NCBI GenBank assembly: GCA_036785375.1
Contig: JAWMAR010000030.1
Coordinates: forward strand, 6,820,001 to 6,884,000
Reading direction: 5' to 3'
Origin: Leucoraja ocellata
Lineage: Eukaryota
DNA: 64,000 nucleotides
The position numbers were made by a program, and so were the translations under genes. Positions within the stretch are counted from its first letter, which is position 1, and every line of letters begins with the position of its first letter. The notes beneath the pieces are model-generated. The model had not been told where the DNA came from. It worked only from the letters and a program-made list of their open reading frames with translations, and made no database searches. Below, one piece after another: positions 30,893-64,000 of this stretch.

Positions 30893-31659
30893 GTCCCATT
30901 GCTCCATATTTTTCATATAACCTATTCTCCCTCTCACTTGCCTACACTGATGTTCCTACCACACTGTTACTAATTAGCAACCAACCCGCACTTCTTTGGG
31001 TTGTGAGGGGAAGCTGGAGGATCCAGAGAAAACACATGGTCACAGGGAGAATGTTATCCAGTTTGTGTGGAATTTGCACAAAGTCAGAATTCAACAACAT
31101 CTACTGTGTTGTCCTCTCGTAGATGGGCTGAGGATAAAGTTTTTATCCACTATGTTAAGGTTGGAACATTTATGGTAAAGACAGATCTACATTTGCAAAT
31201 ATTAATTCACTGCCATAAATCAATGATTCACTGCCTGTGGTCATTGTTGTTGTCTCAGCTCATGTAAGAGATCCAGCCAGATGTAGGTGCAACACCATTT
31301 GCCAGTCTGAACGGGGTCATTGCCAGAAATTGTCCATCGATCTAGTTTGACAGCTTTGGATGGACCATGAGATGATGGGAAGGGTTGGGTGGGGAAGAGA
31401 GGGACTCATTGTTCATTTTACCAGGTGCAGAGTGAAGAAACAAATGCATTTTATTTCTTGTGCTTGGTTAAGAATGTTGGCGAGCATTCCACATGTGAGC
31501 GAGATGAATGGGAATTTGTGAGTGAGTCGGAAGCGAGCCGGAAGAAAAATTGAAATTACATTGCTTCAAATGTATCCATGAATAGAATCAGTTGCAGTGG
31601 AGATTTCTGAGTCCCGACTGTTCACACTAATCATGTAATAAGTGCAGAAAACAATAAAT

Positions 31660-34600
31660 TGCTTGGGCAATAGAAATGTAATTTTATTTTAAACTTTCTC
31701 CAATTAATGCATCAAGCTGAGAGCAACATGCTGAGAAGTAGCTCAGGTAAACAAACTAAATAGATAGACAAAACCTCCATGCTGCTGATTCCATATCTTT
31801 CAATGTCATACGGAATTCAATTTGAATACATTTAAACATCTAAATCTTTCCATCACCCACAGTGTATTTTCTTGAATTGTGTATTCTTCATAATACAATT
31901 AAGGAACGCTTGCTTTAAAGAATATGATGGTTGCAGTTCCTATTTGGATACATAACCGTGTTGTTAAAGGAAACCTTGCATTTGCATGACATATTATGTC
32001 TCCTGGAATACACTGCAAAGAACTTTGCAGTCTCTGAAGGTACTGTTTGTGGCCAGCAAAATGTCGCAACTTTGGGGGAGAATGTTTTCTCAGTACACGG
32101 TATAAGTCAAGTAGTGCCGCACCTATAAATGGAGCACTGCCTTGGTTCATTTGTACAGGTGTCAGGAATGCAGTCATTTAGGGATGATTCCCAGATGAAT
32201 CAAACTTGGCAGCAAAGTTTAGGGAATGATAAAGTGCACACATAAAATGCTGCAAATCATGTCAGTGCCTGGTCAGAAAGAAACTGTCTCTCTTCATTTG
32301 GGGATTAACAGTTTGTCATTTTAGCAAATGCTATGGAAGGCTTTATTTAGTAGTTTTGCTACAAACAGCAAAGTTGTTTTCCTGAGGCTTAGTCATATTG
32401 TCATCTTAACAAATTCTTAGTTGGTTTTAAATCATGGCTTTGAAATGGAGACCAAGGTGGCTTGAGTTTGCCGTATATTAAGCATTCACACAAATTAAGA
32501 CTAGTAGGAGCACATGAGTAACAACCTTTTTATTCATGTCCCCAGCCCAAGATTAGACCTGGATTTCAGTTTCCATTCCAGGGAAGACTGAACATGTCAA
32601 AATGTGCAACACAGTTGACAAACTAAATATTGCCAGATTCCTGACTAGAACAGGAGCCACCAGCTGGGAGTTTTTATTATAACAGTGAGGCACAATATTA
32701 CTGTGCAATGCAAACAGCACTTACCACCTAAAGCAACAAGAACGATTGCAGCAAACTGTTAAATCCTACTTCTGACTTGGTGCCGCGTACTCAGTATAGG
32801 CACAACTCTCCGACACATAGATCATTTAAAGTGCAACTGCTCATTAATTTAATCTATTATGTAGCTCCACAGATTTAGTCAATAATTAACTTTGCATATA
32901 CATTAAGTGAACTGTCTGAACCTCATTTCATCATTACAACTGCAAATATTGCACTTAGACACAGCAGCCCGCTTGATACAGAATTGATTATAATTAGCAA
33001 CTTATAAATCAACAAGGACCTGGGCAAAATGCAATTGAACAATTCACGAACACCCGTAATGATTATGTATATATGTTATGAACGAACTTGCATTTATGAT
33101 GTATTAAATATCTGAGGTTACTGCAATACTACAAGGAACAGGAGGAGTGATTATAGTGTGATAGGTTTACACAGGCAGTTCCCGCTACAAATATGGATAT
33201 TGGAATTTGTATGGAAATACAATGTTATGAACTGAATATGAAACAATATGATCCATATGAAGTAAATGAGGACCAGGTTTCTGACAATGCATCCCTAACT
33301 AAGTAAATCTCCTCTAAACTCCCTGTGTCAAATGTTATAAGACATTGAGTCATGTTAATATTAACTTGGGAATGTAACAATTTGACAGCATTGTGCATTG
33401 ACCACTGTTGTTTACACACACCGAGAACATCGGTGCAGTTCCATGTGATAAATGATGACATTTTAACAAGATCTCTATTGCTGTACCTCCCAGTTTCATT
33501 TTACATTTGCTTCATACATTTAGATAAACACTAAATTGGAGGAGAATCCAGGGATTCTATAATAAATGCTGAAAAATGCAGAAGCTCATGCTGATACAGG
33601 CTGAATGGGCTACTTCCAGGAATAGAAATATCTGACTTTAAATTCAGATATTTGTACTTTGGAATACTGTTATAAACAAAAATGAACAATGTGCTGGCTA
33701 TGCAGAGTTTGTACATTCTCTCTGCTTCACATGGGTTCTTCCAATGGTCTGGTTTCAACTTACATTTCACAAAAGGTGAAGTGGCTACTGTAAATGACTC
33801 TGTATACGGGTTGGTGGACATTAGAGAGAGAAAAGATTACGGGGAAATAAGTGGGCGAATAGTAATGATAGGATTGCATGGACGACGGGCCAAATGGCTT
33901 CCTCTGCCTCGTTGTGCAAAATTATTTTAAACATATCAAAACGTGGTCCAAACCAGCAAAATATTTATGCATGACAAAATGTGGGGAGGGACAGGAAAGA
34001 GTTTGTTTAAATTCAAAGTCAAGTATTGCTTCAATGAGTCAGACTCAGGAACCGACATATTGGGATGGGGGAGGTTGGTCGAGATTTCCTGCCTCCAATT
34101 TGTCAGTGTCTAACCAGAGGGAGCAAAAGACAGTGACCATGTTACAATAATAGGGGTAGCTTCCCTCCATTTGCATGGACCAAATTTTCACAAGGATTTG
34201 ACAATAAAAGCCAAGAGAAATCTCACTCAACTCTCCTCCACCTCATCTCACCTCGGAACCTGAAGTACGTGATGGACTTGTACATTCAGATGGACAGCTA
34301 CTTGGAATAATTTTATGTGGAATTCTCTGTGACAGCCCCTGAACAATATGTAAAATCTAGCCTAAAGGTAACTCCAGATTCTGCCTTTCTATCCTGCACT
34401 GGTAAATGTATTTAACTGTTTGAGGCTGAGGTCAAAGGTTTCATCTTATTTCTGGCAGTGAGGGTGATATAAACATTCCAAGTGTATGCCAGCTGTAGCA
34501 ATTGCATGCACGCAATCTGGAATGATAAAGTTAACTCTTATTGAAAAGTGATGACCAGTTGCCATCTCAGGGGGTAGTCATAGCATCAACTTAAATTTGG

Positions 34601-35933
34601 CATTTTACACTCAACAGTTGACGGCAATCTCACCTCTTGCTAAAATCACTGTTGTATTGTTTGACAGTTGGAATTAAGCACTTCCCTACCAACGCAATAG
34701 GACTACATCAAAGATGCAGGTTGTGCCCAAGGTGATTCATGCCGAGGCACAGGAATACAGCCCAAAATCCGATGTTGTTTGCCCAGTATATCGGTGACCT
34801 CAAAAAAGCACTAAGGAATTGTGAAATTCCCACACCATCTGTCTATGTAGCCTCTCCAAGGGAGGATGTCAAATTACTGGAGAGATCTGTTCTGTGGGTT
34901 TATGCCTACTGGGGTCTAGTTTGTAAGACTACCTAAAAGATGCAATGAAGATCAGTTAAACCCGCAAAGGAAGAAGAGTAGCCCATGAATCTGAGATGAA
35001 AGGTCATGACTGTGATTCATGGCACAGTTATTTGAAATATTTGGCATTTAGCCATCTATCTGTTGGTGGGGCAATTGTACATAATCAAATACACTGGAAA
35101 ATGTGCATGAGTGATGCATGGAAAGGAACACAACATCCCTTTCCACCAAATGGCCTTAACATTGAATGTTGCCCAGCGCCAGTTGAATTGAAAAGATTGA
35201 TACTCTCTTCTGGTTGCCTTTAGAGGATTAGGCAAGCTGACGGAAATATCTTCTGAAATATTTGATACATTAGACTTGACGCCCATTCTTTCTGGTAAAA
35301 GTCTTGTAAGTATGATTCCCATTCCAGGCAATTTAATGCTGTATTTTTTTATTACTTATATTAGAATCTAAACCTCCAGAAGTTTAACTTAAATATATTT
35401 TTAATCTAATAGTTTAAACAAACAAAAATATTCAACTCCGATGGATCAGCTAAGATTAAAATTACCACTTTCCTGGTAAGTTGCCTTCTCTTATCGTCTT
35501 TCCAATCATAACATGTTTAATCAGATTAGCTGAAATAAAAGACAACAAAGTACTAATACAGTTTTTGCTTAAAATAAATCCTGCTCTTCATGCCTCTGTC
35601 AAGGTTTACAACTTAGTGATTCATGTCCAAGTCATTACAGATTCAAAAACTGTTCCACAATTAGTTTTCTTGTCCTGTCCCACCCTGGCAAAATCTGACC
35701 AAAATGTTTGATGTTCTGGATTCTCCAAAAGCAAAAGGCCACACACTGCAATTATAGTGTCTCAAGAGTCTGTGAATGCCGGTCTTTGCCATTGCATCAG
35801 TATGGTCAGCAGGAGCTGTCATTTAGAATGGGGGAAGTTAATTGGGCCAAGTTAACAGTTGCCATATCCAGACTTGGTGAAATCTCATCTGGCAGGCAGA
35901 CTTGTACTATGAGTGTTTCACATCAGGCTTCAG
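31660..35933 (-). other. CCSER2: Probable CCSER2 3' UTR (~4.3 kb)
   Basis: Repeat-poor, AT-rich block directly downstream of the stop. It carries miRNA seed matches and ends at an AATAAA followed by a U-rich element. The end point is inferred. Confidence 0.55.
31683..31688 (-). promoter_or_regulatory. Candidate polyadenylation signal (AATAAA) for CCSER2
   Basis: TTTATT on plus. On minus it is followed ~25 nt later by ATTTATTGTTTTC (U/GU-rich downstream element). Alternative AATAAA sites lie at 31450, 32342 and 32529. Confidence 0.45.
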
Positions 35934-36866
35934 TTAGCCCTGAAAATTGCAACTTGTGGGAGTGGATGCATGCGTCTTTGGTTTAGGAAGGCGAGAATGC
36001 CGAACAGATGATGCAAGTTTGTCTGCCTGGGATTCATCACCCTGATCTTTTGCAGAACAATCTTCTCTGTGCTTCTTCTGTTGCTTGTCTGATGGTAGGA
36101 TCTGAGATGATGGTTCGTCTTGGTATTTGGTGGACTCAACCTGTTGGATCTCCTTGTGAAGAGACCCAGGACTGGCTGAAAATGCTGAAGACTTAATGCT
36201 CAGAAGTGGTGATGATAGGGAAGGTGATAGTTTGGATTTTCTTTTTTGTTGTTCATCTTTTTGTGTAGAAATATTTGTGGGTATTGATAATTGGAGGTGT
36301 TGTTCTGATTCCTTTTGATTATTTATAGATGGTTGAACTGAACTGTCTACAGGGCTAAGTGCTGCCTGAGAGATTGCAAGCACATTTTTTCTAGGCTTCG
36401 AGACCAGAGGAGACTTCACAATTGAAGTCTGGATTTTGGATTTAATATTCAAATCCTTGGAAGGCTGTTTGAAAGCAAACCTGGGACGATAGTCTTTATT
36501 CAAGGCTTCTTCTGTAAATAATGAGCAGCCGGGCAAATTGACCGGCTGGACTGAAACCTGACTATGCCCATGTTCCCTAGGCAGCGCAGCTGGACTCTGC
36601 TTGGTCTTGTTAGAGACTGGGGGTTTCTGGGCAGATCTGTCATTAGAGTCTTCATTCTTCTGTTGGGTCGACAGAGTGAAGCCTTTATCAGAATCCAACT
36701 GTGAGCAAATAACATTTTTTCCTTCTTGGTTAGTTTGAGGGCAGTTCTCATTAGATCCATTCTTCTGATTCCTACTGAGGTCCTCGGTATGGACTGGTTT
36801 TGCTAATTTTCCCATGCTGCGATCTTTGGTGCTGCATGTGTAGCTGGAAGGCTGTAGTACTGGAGG
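35934..36866 (-). CDS. CCSER2: CCSER2 (coiled-coil serine-rich protein 2 / FAM190B) terminal exon, long C-terminal reading frame (phase 0)
   Basis: Splice acceptor ...gtttctttcaacag| at 36867-36880 (minus). The frame reads PPVLQPSSYTCSTKDRSMGKLAKPVHTED...SSVRHSRLPKPKTHASTPTSCNFQG* and contains the 293-aa ORF 35934..36815. It matches the recalled human long-isoform ends PQVLQPSS...QGKLIKP and ...RYSRLPKPKIH. Ser/Gln/Pro/Lys-rich, disordered composition. Confidence 0.9.
   Translation of the reverse strand, partial: PPVLQPSSYTCSTKDRSMGKLAKPVHTEDLSRNQKNGSNENCPQTNQEGKNVICSQLDSDKGFTLSTQQKNEDSNDRSAQKPPVSNKTKQSPAALPREHGHSQVSVQPVNLPGCSLFTEEALNKDYRPRFAFKQPSKDLNIKSKIQTSIVKSPLVSKPRKNVLAISQAALSPVDSSVQPSINNQKESEQHLQLSIPTNISTQKDEQQKRKSKLSPSLSSPLLSIKSSAFSASPGSLHKEIQQVESTKYQDEPSSQILPSDKQQKKHREDCSAKDQGDESQADKLASSVRHSRLPKPKTHASTPTSCNFQG
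36772..36866 (-). CDS. CCSER2: CCSER2 terminal exon, alternative short reading frame (phase 1)
   Basis: Same acceptor in a shifted frame: xSSTTAFQLHMQHQRSQHGKISKTSPYRGPQ* (TAG at 36772-36774). Closely matches the recalled human short-isoform end TSSTTAFQQPSQTHRSHPGKTNKATTYRGPQ*. Confidence 0.85.
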
Positions 36867-38371
36867 CTGTTGAAAGAAACAGAACGTTTCAGATTATGTT
36901 ACATTTAATATGATATAGCTAAGAGACCGGCAGAGTACATGCTTGTTTGCTTTGAGCACCTGGACATCATGCGGGAGAAACATTGAGGGTTGAAGACAAG
37001 CAGACAGCACAGCAGCCATTCTTTGGAAACACAATCTTTCAGAAGATCACGAAGGGGGTGTTCAGAACAAATGGGTTTGATAATTGTAAAATGAAAACCA
37101 TACAGAGTGCAAATAAATAAATTGTTAAGAACAACGGGTAGTATACAAACCTTTCTGTATGCCTGTCCAGATCATTCATTGCAAATTAACATGGCTCAAA
37201 AGGTTCAAAAGATAACTGAGTATTAAAATACTTATTTTTGAATTACTGCTGGACTAGCAATCCAGGGAGAATTAAATTCACACCACTGGAATTTATGTAT
37301 TTGGATTTTTTAAAAATCTAGAAATGGGAAAGCAATTATCAGTAAAGGTGAAACTTCAGCGTAGTGTCAACCACCATATATTATGCTGGATAACATGCAT
37401 TTGCCAAAACATACAGAAGACTTTGAATTGGCCAAGCAAACCCTTCTGTTATATCAAAAGGAAAGGCTACTGACATTTCTTCAGGGTAACCAAATGAGCA
37501 ATATAACTGCAAGCCTTGACAGTAACATTAAGTAATGCCAGTGAATCTTTTGTGGCATTGCTCATGACAAGTCAGACAATTTTATATAATTCCAAGATCT
37601 CCAAGACACACAGTGATATGTGCCATCCTGCTGTTAATGCAATGTGTTTAATTAGACTACCATTTAAAGGCCACAAAATCTAATTGGTATAAATGTGCAT
37701 ATTTTCTGAGATCAATTAGAGGCTAATTTATATCATTAAGGGAATTTGCTGATTAGCAGGTGCTTGGAAATTCACAGCTCCGGGTTAACAAACCCATAGT
37801 CAAAAAATGTCCACCCCCCTTTGTGTCCCTACCTTTGACACTTAAATTAAAACCTTGGGTTAAAACACATTTGTTATGTGGAAATTCATTTAAATTTCCA
37901 GGTCATTAATATCTGATTATCCTGGCATTTGCACATAAACAATTCATAATAATTACACATGAGCAGACTGGAGGGCAGGCCAGGTTCAGAGCGCATCTGC
38001 AATAAAAAGGACCATCATTTTACCATGCCGGTGAATTTTATTGTAGCATTTATAAAAATGCCATTTTGTGTACTGATTCTGTGTAAGAATAATATAATGG
38101 TGGACACCAATAATTCTGGAAATCTATCAACCCATACTTTCTTAACTTGTCTTTCTTTGCTATTGAATGAAACCCATAATTTGTAATTCTAATCAACAAG
38201 TGATTTACAGAGCCCCTTCCACAAGTATATGACTACAGGATAATCTTCCTTGATTGAAGACCTGTTTTGAATTTTGGGCGGCTGAAAATTGAACTGTTAC
38301 TCTTCCTTTTCCCCTGATAGGTTAGCTAACAGAATACCATATAATTTGAATAACTGTCATTTTTGGTTCAT

Positions 38372-46411: not shown

Positions 46412-46605
46412 NNNNNNNNNNNNNNNNNNNNNNNNNNNNNNNNNNNNNNNNNNNNNNNNNNNNNNNNNNNNNNNNNNNNNNNNNNNNNNNNNNNNNNNNN
46501 NNNNNNNNNNNNNNNNNNNNNNNNNNNNNNNNNNNNNNNNNNNNNNNNNNNNNNNNNNNNNNNNNNNNNNNNNNNNNNNNNNNNNNNNNNNNNNNNNNNN
46601 NNNNN
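46412..46605. other. Assembly gap (194 N)
   Basis: Run of N followed by a G-tract. Confidence 1.
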
Positions 46606-49731: not shown

Positions 49732-52154
49732 TCATTTGCTCTCAAATCTATCTCATTTGCTTGTCTTCACACTGTTGCAAAGCCATTTTTCACAGTGATG
49801 TTAAGATCTGGTTATACAATGTTACGTTATGGACCTGCTGAGCCATGTTATTGCCCACAGACAATTGCAGCGTATATATGCAAGTGTATGTTATACATGA
49901 GCACACAGAAATCAGCCAGAATTTCATCAATCACTGACCACACAAGTTTACGCATGCATGGTTTTACCACTCGTGCAGCATGCAATCAGCGGGGATTATT
50001 TTGTGTTATACCATACCACACTTTATCATAGAAGTAATGGACAACATCCTCAATTCCTTGCACCAGCCAATGAAAAGGGAGAGACAAAGAAAGACAAGGA
50101 CATGGGCAGTGACATCACAAACAATGAACTGCATTTATTAGAGTATTTGACAATGCCTCAGTTGAAAGGAAATTTAACTTTATAACTAGAGGGTTTCAAT
50201 TTTGTAAGCAACATTTTCATCAAGGATGTACATTATAAACAGACCACAGAGGCTGTACTGTCTAGTATATACCGGTGTATAAGTTCTCCATGCAATGAAG
50301 TGTTGAGTGTACAGATGTTTCCATGTATTGTACAGCTGAGTACACAGAACTCTTTGTTTGACAGTTAAATAGGCACAATATAGTATTTAAAGTTTCTGTA
50401 CAAGGGTTTCTTCCTACAGTAATATAACACTTTACATATACACTACTGTTTCCTAATTTATTGCTTAATTTACAAGCTCCCCTGTGTAATCTACTACTTA
50501 TACTGAACTTTCCATCTGTATCGTGTTCTATTGATATAAAGTCTCCTGGCAATGTATTTAATGCACCATCCTCCTGTAATCATTCTTAATTCAGTAAATA
50601 GCTTCACTGCAGAATGTAATAACAGTTCCACACTGTCCAGGAGATTGCAATATGATCATGGTGTCATTATTATTACCTGTAATTTACAATAAACATTGTT
50701 AACAATGCAATTAATGTCATTAGTCTTCTACCTTCAACCATTGTGTTGGTGCATCCAATATGTTACCATCTCATTAAACTGTGCCTTAAGGATATTTTTT
50801 TTTTAAGATGACATTAAATTCATTATTGAAATTAGTGATCTTATTTCAAATGAAACATTGAGGTGGTAACAGCCAATTACAAATATGGTCCACTATAACA
50901 ATGACCAATATCACAAACTTGATAACTCTAAAATTGAGATAGAGGTCGCAAAACGTTATGACGACTGTTCTCACGCCACCAAGTTTGTGTATTCCTCTAA
51001 ACAGCATTTCTTCACAGAAGTTCATTTTAATATCTAGTTGACTTCTCTTAAATTAACAATTGATCATCGATTATTTTCATTCTCTTCCCATTTTTTTTTT
51101 GTACAAATTGTAGCCACAAGGTTGTGGGTACTTGGACTACAATGCAAGTAAATTGTACCGAATGACTGGCTAAAGACATGTTGTGTTTGAAGAAAACCCT
51201 CATTTTGAATTTCCACTTCAATTGGCATATAAAGCCCAGAAACATTCTCTATTGGCTTCCTAGTAATAATTTCTGTTACCGATATAATCTTTGTTTATGT
51301 ATCAAGTCACTGTAGTCATCTCGCAAAGGGTTATCTTTACAACAAGCTGAAGATAAAATATTGAACCAAAAACAAGGCAAAATCATCTACCAATCTTTCA
51401 CTTCAACTAAATATTATCATATCCCTCAAGAGGCAATCAAGCATTTCACACTTCAATTGTTTTCAAGTGCTAGATAGCCAAATCTGGTGGCTGCTTTGTT
51501 CCCAGCAAGCCACAATGAATTGGAAGAGAAAACAACAATTAGAACACAGTTTTTTAAAATAGTTTTTATGGTTTCTGATCAGCTTATCCTAATCTGCTTA
51601 ATTTTGCCACATCAAGATAATGCCAGAAAGACGAGGATTTTAACAGCAGATATTGTCCAGTGCCTTCCCTTCTCAAAATTAATCTAATTGACAGGTATGA
51701 GTTTTGTTTATACTGATGCTACATTTAAATGGATAGCTCCAGTAAGTTGGATAAAACAGAGAAATGAGGGAATATCTGATTACCAAAGCGGTACCACCAG
51801 GCACAAGGCAAGCTATCACTTTGTAGCTGCTGATCACTGGATAACAGGTAAACACAACAGAGAAACTGCATGACTGCAGACAGATTTTGCCACCATTTTG
51901 TAAAAATGAACAAGGTGACATTGGAAACACCACAGAGAAGATTCATAAGGATGTCTGCAGTGTAAAGAGAACATTGCTGCTAGAACAGCCTATAAATAAT
52001 GTTTTTTAAACTCCAGAAAGTAGATGGCTGAGTCTAGCTGATTGGATAGAGGTCTTAAAATATCTCCACGCAAAACAAAATTATCAATGATTGCAACTTC
52101 GCCAAAGTTATTTGTTCCTATGAAAGTCCAAGCATTTTTATCTTCAGCACAATG

Positions 52155-58800: not shown

Positions 58801-59929
58801 TCCTCTTCGCTGATGAGTGATCGCTACATTAAGTGAAGCTTTTTCACTGAAACAAATGAGTGGAAGGTCTCATACTTAACATCCACAAGACACTCTATCA
58901 ACATGCCCCTATTGCTCCACACTACCTTGCAGATGATGGGACTTGGAAAATTGACTTTCCTCTTCTCAGGAGTCACCTCTCAACAGAAGCAGACACCGAT
59001 GATGGAATTCACAGCTGCTTTGATGTGTTGCCACAGACTTTGGTCACACAGGAAAGAGTTATTGAGCGATTGAGCGGTTATTGAGGTGTGATAAATGTCA
59101 TGTAAGCTGCAGTGTTCTCTCCCTTACTATGTGGATCTTCTATGACTCCCATTATGGCCTTATCAGTCTTCTTGGAACACACAGAACAAGAGTAAATGTC
59201 AATCCAGTAGAACAACGTGAGAAAAAGATTCCCAACCAAAAATCTACTGCTTGTTAAATCAGAGCTCATGAATCATGAAACGACAGTGGCAACACTGGCA
59301 TTACTCATGTAATGGGTGACATTGTGACCTCTATTAAGTATGCCAAGTCCCTATCAGAATAAACCTTCTGTGACAAACACAGGGTTTCTACAATTAGCTA
59401 TACCATATATGCTGTTTACAGTTCCACTCCTACTATAGGTGCACAAAATGTCGACATCCTGCCATTAGATTTGTACATCTCATTGTGCACCGTTAGATAT
59501 TCTACCCATTAATTATAGTGCCTCTCCTGTTAGACACACTGTCAGTCAGTGTCTTTCCTATAAGATACATTGCCAATCACACCGTCTTTCCCATTGGCAA
59601 GTGTCTTTCAATCAAAGCTTCTCTTATTAGCTAAAGCTACTTTTAATCACGGAATGTCTATTCTTCCACAGATAAAAGTCAAGATAAGTGACACAGAGTG
59701 CAGAAAGAATAACTCACTTGCACCTTTCTTTTTTTTTTGAGTAAGATGCCCAGTGAGTTTTCACAGAAGAATTAGGAGACAAAGACCAACAATGAGTAAA
59801 GAAGATACTGCAGGGATGAAGATGAAGAGATAAAAAGGAGGGAGAGGATGACAAAGCTAAGAGTTTTGCACTGTAAGCATGGTAGGCGGCAAATTGACAA
59901 GATGGGAATGTATGGTTCTGGGGCTGGAG

Positions 59930-60402
59930 ACAATAAATCAATGAATGAATGAATAAGTTTATACCAGAGCAAAAGGAGGCTACAGATTTTTGGTTATTGA
60001 GTAGAGCAACTACTCGTAGAAAAAAGCTGTTTTTATGTCTGGTTGTGGCAGCTTTGACAGTCCGGAGTCTCATTCCAGAGGGAAACGATTCAAATAGTTT
60101 GTGGCCAAGGTGAGAGGGGTCAGAGATGATCTTGACCACTTGCTTCCTGGTCCTTGCAGTGTACAGTTCGTCAATGGAGGGAAGGTTGCAGCCAATAACC
60201 TTCTCAGCTGATCGGATGATTCGCTGCAGCCTCCGTGTGTCGTGCTTGGTGGCTGAGCCAAACCAGGCCATGATGGAGAAGGTGAGGACAGACTCTACGA
60301 TGGCCCTACAGAAATCGACCATCATTGCCTGTGGTAGGTTGTGCTTCCTCAGCTGCCGCAGGAAATACATCCTCTGTTGTGCCTTTTTGACTGTCGAAGG
60401 AA
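59930..60402 (-). mobile_element. Rex1/Babar non-LTR retrotransposon, RT C-terminal fragment plus 3' tail
   Basis: KKAQQRMYFLRQLRKHNLPQAMMVDFCRAIVESVLTFSIMAWFG...LQRIIRSAEKVIG.NLPSI...DPSHLGHKLF..FPSG.RLR...TTRHKNSFF, the typical Rex1 C-terminal region, followed by a (ttca)n tail. Confidence 0.9.
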
Positions 60403-60871
60403 TCCGAAGATGAATTTTGTACAGAGATGGTTGTATCACATAATCATAGAAAAGTACAGCATGGAAACCGACCCTTACAATCCACAGCCCACTTGTCCAT
60501 GCCATGTCCCTCTACTGCTTACCTATCCAAAGAGCAGAGAAACAAAAGCAGATGTATGCCCTCCAGCTGACTCAAACCTGGAACTGTGTTGCATGATAAA
60601 TAGGAAACAAATTGGATGTGTTTATTGAAAGTGGGGACTAGGAGGCCAAACAAGAACAAGTTAGACTAGTCGTGACTGGGGATAACTAGATGGAGAGGTA
60701 GATGATGAAGGACATTTCTGATAAAGGATATGGACTAATAACTAACTTCAGGATACAGCAGTAAGATCTCACAGTACTACTTGGTTAGAGAGAGTTGCCC
60801 AGGGTGGACGTGCATTCACAGTGGATGATAGATTCTATAGCACCTAGCTACAGAACAAATAAATTATAACA

Positions 60872-63540: not shown

Positions 63541-64000
63541 GGGGTAAAATTGTTATAGACAACATAAAGAAATTATAAAATAAATCAAAAACTGTAGATG
63601 CTGGAAATCAGAAAATAAGCTGAAAATGGTAGAAATAAATCAGCAACATTGGTGGAAAGACAACATTTTAAACCAGAGGATTCTCACTCCCAACTGTTTG
63701 CTGAATTTGAATCTATAGTGAAATGAAACGAGGAGAGAAAATCTCGGAGAGCTGGAATTACTTCATGTATAAAAACTTGGAAAGAGATTTATGTTCTTGA
63801 GAACAACCCTCCAACAAAATTTGTCAATTATTTTATATGTCAATAAGTCACTTATGAAATATTTCAAAATACTCTTAATATATAATGTGAACATTTAAAT
63901 GTTCAAAATGAAAAGGTGTTGGGAAATTCAAAGTAAAACCAGAAAACGCTAGAAACACTCAACAGGTCAGGCAAATGGTTGAATAAATAAAGAAGCGTCT

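Follow-up and report, generated by a model that had tools for sequence, protein, structure and literature searches.

The terminal coding exon of CCSER2 in Leucoraja ocellata is open in three reading frames from a single splice acceptor, and we consider it very probable that this is a triple-coding last exon whose frame is chosen by two upstream cassette exons (A and B), swapping the C-terminus of the protein. The exon lies in a 64,000-nt stretch of genomic DNA, which we call the window (Table 1). The accessible text of Tress et al. (bioRxiv 10.64898/2026.05.28.727796) reports on the same gene and exon from a human-centered analysis based on dN/dS and peptides: the last exon of human CCSER2 (GCAP14/FAM190B) is triple-coding and yields three C-termini, all three frames are conserved to the earliest jawed vertebrates, low dN/dS indicates selection in each of them, and peptides support each of them in human. 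The multi-frame exon is real, but its gene, phenomenon, and conservation depth have already been described. What our analysis adds is small: it locates cassette exon B in L. ocellata and points to candidate neural splicing signals next to it.

Table 1. Features of the CCSER2 terminal exon and of cassette exon B, in window coordinates
Feature	Position	Strand	Details
CCSER2 terminal coding exon, long frame (phase 0)	35934–36866	-	310 codons, then TAA at 35936–35934
Short frame (phase 1), dual-coding stretch	36772–36866	-	95 nt, TAG at 36774–36772
Third frame (phase 2), triple-coding stretch	36803–36866	-	20 codons, TAG at 36805–36803
Terminal-exon 3′ splice site, common to all frames	36867–36911	-	Pyrimidine tract and CAG
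Candidate polyadenylation signal	35348–35353	-	First AATAAA past the long-frame stop; predicted from sequence only
SRLP, sole [ST]x[IL]P (EB-binding-type) motif of the long tail	35985–35996	-	VRHSRLPKPK, basic context
Cassette exon B, 40 nt (3n+1)	50017–50056	-	aag/GAATTG...GTGTG/gtatgg; xIEDVVHYFYDKVx
Exon B 3′ splice site	50057–50106	-	Long pyrimidine tract set back from AG; TGC at −6 to −4
Two TGCATG motifs (Rbfox-type)	49953–49984	-	49979–49984 and 49953–49958; start 33 and 59 nt past the exon B donor

Three frames in the terminal exon

The exon begins at an acceptor at position 36866 on the minus strand (...tttcaacag/CCTCCA). Phase 0 from this point begins PPVLQPSSYTCSTKDRSMGKLAKP and stays open for 310 codons; phase 1 reads xSSTTAFQLHMQHQRSQHGKISKTSPYRGPQ and meets a TAG after 30 codons; and phase 2 reads LQYYSLPATHAAPKIAAWEN (xLQYYSLP...WEN) and then meets a TAG. 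An earlier note on this DNA had called the exon dual-coding, with a 310-codon phase 0 and a 95-nt phase 1 encoding this same peptide. Both frames are exactly as it gave them, but the description was incomplete: it missed the third frame, of 20 codons with a stop after WEN, which would make the exon triple-coding.

The exon belongs to a CCSER2 orthologue, as judged by its best matches, which are CCSER2 proteins, and by conservation of the exon start and of the terminal SRLPKPK. The long frame matched six proteins, five named CCSER2, all from cartilaginous fishes, and a sixth that was 99% identical. Its identity to CCSER2 is 70% in Hemitrygon, 56 to 59% in three sharks, and 46% in Callorhinchus. 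Pfam and PDB searches with the long tail returned no match. By tblastn with the long isoform, the terminal exon alone was placed in the 64-kb window and no upstream constitutive exon gave a credible match, so the preceding intron is longer than 27 kb.

Past the long-frame stop and the candidate polyadenylation signal, more AATAAA hexamers occur at 32678, 32534, 32347, 31688, and 31455. Taken together, the AATAAA and ATTAAA hexamers in 31455 to 35521 (minus strand) lie approximately 0.4 to 0.6 kb and 3.1 to 4.5 kb beyond the long stop, and possibly mark alternative 3′ ends. Elsewhere in the window, a 265-aa stop-to-stop frame at 59714 to 60511 (minus strand) matched Pfam PF09004 (ALKBH8_N, E = 1e-13); it is presumably what is left of an intronic LINE-type retroelement. 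Pfam searches with 65 of the 74 stop-to-stop frames of at least 85 aa gave no match, Pfam analysis of the stop-to-stop frames revealed no neighboring gene in the window, and Rfam and tRNA scans of the window DNA gave no match. Positions 1 to 35000, where the scanned frames and DNA matched nothing in Pfam or Rfam and no tRNA, appear to be repeat-rich non-coding DNA.

Conservation of the short frames

Our first homologue search listed 120 of 297 matches, from which we dropped 13 unnamed records to leave 107. Thirteen of these 107 named relatives are shorter than 900 aa: three have YRGPQ ends, with cassette A only (Narcine, Heptranchias, and Heterodontus), six have third-frame ends (Pristis, Stegostoma, Chiloscyllium, two birds, and Latimeria), and four are long-tailed. 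Within the cartilaginous fishes, the named isoforms with both cassettes are those of Pristis, Stegostoma, and Chiloscyllium. In these sequence comparisons, all three window frames match annotated CCSER2 isoform ends of sharks and rays, although most of the isoforms in the databases are predicted models and many of the records are from species closely related to one another. A second search gave 53 matches, or 49 once four unnamed records were dropped. No teleost record was among the matches listed (120 of 297 in the first search, 53 in the second), nor was a named human record; primate records, including orangutan, carry this YRGPQ tail of 31 residues at their ends.

In 48 of the 49 named matches, exactly 31 residues follow RRQ and the protein ends in YRGPQ; the other match is the third-frame form of Pristis. 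The YRGPQ frame of the window is identical to that of Narcine at 28 of 30 residues, to those of two sharks at 24 to 25, and to those of 45 amniote records (mammal, bird, and turtle, many of them close relatives) at 16 to 19, and 15 of the 30 positions are invariant across the 48 records. Compared with named isoform ends, the third frame is identical at 19 of 20 residues in Pristis, 13 in two sharks, and 10 in Upupa. Its stop falls at codon 21 in the window, three chondrichthyans, and Upupa, and is placed there by reconstruction in all five amniote same-species pairs; in Leptosomus and Latimeria it comes one codon later. To the earlier note, both of its frames and the YRGPQ stop position looked preserved, which is borne out from sharks and rays to amniotes. 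It had named conservation of the stop position and of short-frame similarity beforehand as one test of this idea, and both are kept in chondrichthyans and amniotes.

It is conceivable that the long frame alone is functional, the other frames being passively open and the short isoforms representing splicing noise or annotation artifacts. Most of the records are predicted models, and Tress et al. (10.64898/2026.05.28.727796) caution that short overlaps can persist passively. In our null model, eight non-window long tails were back-translated with random synonymous codons (20,000 draws), only the long frame being constrained and silent sites being taken as saturated. Mean identity of the draws to the window short frame was 6.4 to 7.6 of 30 residues, compared with 16 to 19 in the 45 amniote short isoforms, and the probability of at least 16 identities was at most 1e-4. 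An open frame of 30 codons with a stop at codon 31 had a probability of 0.02 to 0.06, and YRGPQ a probability of <0.008. Together with the separate 40-nt exon, which lies 13 kb upstream and is conserved to birds, and the human peptides for all three frames (10.64898/2026.05.28.727796), these passive odds largely refute the idea that only the long frame matters, and we regard it as very unlikely. The short frame is constrained beyond the long frame by this protein-level proxy, which does not separate constraint on the peptide from constraint on the nucleotides.

Long and short isoforms from the same species could be encoded by one DNA sequence in five of five pairs, compared with six of 20 mismatched pairs, and all six of those were among two horseshoe bats and pig. 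The amniote pairs imply a TGA stop at the position of the window's TAG. YRGPQ followed by a stop can be encoded at codons 26 to 31 of 93 of the 96 named long tails, the exceptions being tenrec, which has an insertion of one codon, mole, and Myotis. In two frogs, YRGPQ-stop is encodable in one and xRGPQ-stop in the other. When we scanned 10,618 positions in 10 proteins, YRGPQ-stop was encodable at the 10 homologous sites only. The accessible text of Tress et al. (bioRxiv 10.64898/2026.05.28.727796) states that one frame was lost in bats; the two horseshoe bats retain both short stops. Compared with 91 amniote tails, the long frame has an identity of 0.51 at codons 1 to 31, an overlap stretch nearly without gaps, of 0.13 to 0.15 at codons 32 to 284, and of 0.65 at codons 285 to 300; residues 1 to 31 and 285 to 300 are the conserved islands of the long tail.

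Exon starts often bear splicing enhancers. Such enhancers could explain the constraint observed here if the short frames serve truncation only, that is, if early stops and splice signals are selected and the short peptides are idle. The short tails have just 20 to 30 residues and no known domain, and the back-translation null gives the same answer for either level of constraint. Against truncation alone, all 48 records have an unchanged YRGPQ, encoded 75 to 92 nt from the exon start, although the overlying long-frame residues (codons 25 to 33) vary, as would be expected of substitutions that leave the short-frame peptide unaltered. In addition, the protein sequences of cassettes A and B show conservation between rays and birds, and dN/dS is low in three frames according to Tress et al. 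(10.64898/2026.05.28.727796). We consider a role in truncation alone possible but rather unlikely.

Cassette exons and the proposed choice of frame

From the comparison of long and short relatives, cassette A is predicted to add 28 codons and a single extra base (about 85 nt) in eight of the 10 records printed; the remaining two have shorter in-frame versions. In the long isoforms of sharks and rays, six residues separate TQT from PPVLQ. Neither cassette A nor the last constitutive exon was found in the 64-kb window by tblastn and motif scan, and cassette A and the upstream constitutive exons probably lie beyond window position 64000. A 194-base N gap at 46412 to 46605 adjoins a G-rich repeat in the intron and could hide a small exon.

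Exon B was found by tblastn with the Pristis isoform end, which matched positions 50060 to 50019 (E = 2e-4), 13 kb upstream of the terminal exon. An acceptor precedes 50056 and a GTATGG donor follows 50017, so that the exon has AG/GT ends, and its phase fits: translation that enters it in phase 1 and continues into the terminal exon would yield xIEDVVHYFYDKVC-LQYYSL...WEN-stop. Its peptide is identical at 12 of 13 residues in Pristis, 11 in two sharks, and 8 in two birds, and the upstream segment of the Latimeria model differs from it. The suggestion that a frame-shifting cassette exon makes the choice, also from the earlier note, agrees with the annotated isoforms of relatives; it has to be widened to a second frame-shifting cassette, exon B.

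We propose that two upstream cassettes of 3n+1 nucleotides, spliced alternatively, would set the frame of the three-way open terminal exon in L. ocellata. Because each cassette is 3n+1, inclusion of none, of A, or of A and B would give phases 0, 1, and 2. Skipping of both would produce the long tail that ends with the SRLP motif, inclusion of A would produce the 31-residue YRGPQ end, and inclusion of A and B, with exon B shifting phase 1 to phase 2, would produce the WEN end. The short messages would be expected to escape nonsense-mediated decay, because all the stops are in the last exon. Exon B is stop-free in phase 0 too, and B without A would enter the YRGPQ frame through a different linker. 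We rejected this exon-B-only route, which is used by none of the 49 named short isoforms; a run of 13 stop-free codons is unremarkable.

The frame could instead be picked by alternative acceptors within the terminal exon, where AG dinucleotides occur 7, 15, 23, and 35 nt in; the first of these, at 36859 (minus strand), would as an acceptor put a phase-0 donor directly into the third frame. However, all 49 named short isoforms have the cassette A sequence (RRQ) ahead of the shifted frame, and homology to named isoforms begins in each frame at the main acceptor, 36866. We regard a choice among internal acceptors, as opposed to cassettes, as extremely unlikely.

The surroundings of exon B, the cassette that would select the third frame, contain candidate splicing signals. 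Under the Rbfox rule, TGCATG downstream of an exon is linked to neural inclusion. The Poisson probability of at least two TGCATG in 100 nt, as found downstream of exon B, is 0.0006 (calculated post hoc). Among the intron's 103 donor-like sites, such a pair follows two, both possibly belonging to exon B, and TGCATG is not enriched across the whole window (52 compared with 56 expected). A UGC that follows the pyrimidine tract and precedes the AG is described as a feature of SRRM3/4-dependent microexons (10.1101/2024.09.17.613571). The TGC at −6 to −4 of exon B matches this feature, although a three-base motif is weak evidence. At 40 nt, exon B is too long for a classical SRRM3/4 neural microexon (3 to 27 nt), an assignment we rejected, and it fits only a wider published definition that extends to 51 nt. 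The UGC and TGCATG signals, recognized post hoc around an exon longer than a classical microexon, suggest that exon B may be included in neural tissue.

Probable consequences for the CCSER2 C-terminus

The long tail is of low complexity and rich in S, P, Q, and K (16% S, 8% P, 11% K, and 2.8% aromatic residues). As far as its sequence is concerned, it has what defines an SxIP-type tail, namely [ST]x[IL]P within surroundings that are basic, rich in serine and proline, and low in aromatic residues. The likeness to SxIP-type plus-end-tracking proteins lies in this SxLP motif, in its basic serine/proline-rich tail, and in the conserved terminal SRLPKPK; EB binding has been shown only for human long forms, and the ray protein would join them by resemblance. 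A single SxLP motif occurs in the ray tail, compared with three or four there in the five amniote long forms that we scanned. Within the triple-coding stretch, at tail residues 8 to 11, an additional SxLP (SSLP or SNLP) is present in amniote long isoforms, where the window has SYTC (36834 to 36845, minus strand).

In human, Ccser2 is a plus-end-tracking protein that binds EB1 via C-terminal SxIP regions (PMC10486078), and its NDEL1 site comprises residues 657 to 687 (10.1101/2024.06.13.598865), upstream of the frame switch. Named short forms keep an SxLP at residue 13 and lose the C-terminal SxLP motifs. The switch had been pictured as toggling a tail of about 300 aa with an EB-type motif; the tail does contain one SRLP, but the N-terminal SxLP stays, so only some motifs are lost. 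The outcome would be a C-terminal swap, in which the short proteins would retain the N-terminal SxLP and the NDEL1-binding coiled coil and, without the C-terminal EB-type motif, would be expected to track plus ends more weakly with NDEL1 binding retained. Mutation of Ccser2 motifs 1 and 4 led to fewer comets (10.1101/2024.06.13.598865). Because cell shape was still rescued in part by a mutant that had none of the four SxLP motifs (Zang et al., 10.1101/2024.06.13.598865), SxLP loss may matter little.

The mouse Gcap14 isoforms tested have 1038 and 485 aa (PMC9974511) and do not match the short-tailed CCSER2 forms of approximately 830 to 850 aa. We rejected mouse isoform ‘A85’ as the form with the 85-nt cassette, as it is the 485-aa protein; for that reason, the accessible text of PMC9974511 provides no evidence for plus-end tracking by short-tailed forms. 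Our literature search, which covered sources other than subscription journals and bioRxiv supplements, found nothing on the function or regulation of short-tailed CCSER2 isoforms, and Tress et al. (10.64898/2026.05.28.727796) state that the isoform functions are unknown. They also cite brain-specific CCSER2 transcripts of Goubert et al. Table S1 of Goubert et al. (PMC13160074) lists human DCR 361, in which Q9H7U1-1 and -4 use one frame and -3 another, all as no_NMD; this region has two frames only, compared with three in the ray exon. CCSER2 is not named in the main text of Goubert et al. (PMC13160074) or in the accessible text of PMC13247117.

The other ancient triple-coding exons listed by Tress et al. 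are those of ADGRL2, ADGRL3, ATP2B1, DCLK1, MAP4, and SYNCRIP, alongside which are SH2B1 and the dual-coding end of NDEL1 (10.64898/2026.05.28.727796). In all of these, as in CCSER2, upstream non-triplet splicing picks the frame of the 3′ exon and swaps the C-terminus, although the sequences of the triple-coding exons are unrelated to that of CCSER2. NDEL1, with its own conserved dual-coding end, is the binding partner of CCSER2. As in the exons of Tress et al., the same nucleotides are used in different frames by distinct isoforms (named shark and ray ends, co-encodable pairs), and premature stops are absent and the stop position is kept across clades (chondrichthyans and amniotes).

It is rare for an exon to be conserved in three frames throughout the jawed vertebrates, with seven genes reported (10.64898/2026.05.28.727796). 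The window adds an independent case from a cartilaginous fish, in which the 40-nt exon that would pick the third frame has been located. CCSER2 governs the site of dynein activation through NDEL1. We offer, as a speculation that we think unlikely, that the cassettes form a two-step phase ratchet that predates the shark-mammal split: A would exchange the EB-binding tail for the invariant YRGPQ end, with a binding or turnover role of its own, and neuronal factors, invoked because of the Rbfox sites downstream and the SRRM4-type UGC upstream of exon B, would add B to give a neuron-specific end. If this is true, splicing would shift an NDEL1-releasing, dynein-activating module off plus ends in a tissue-specific manner.
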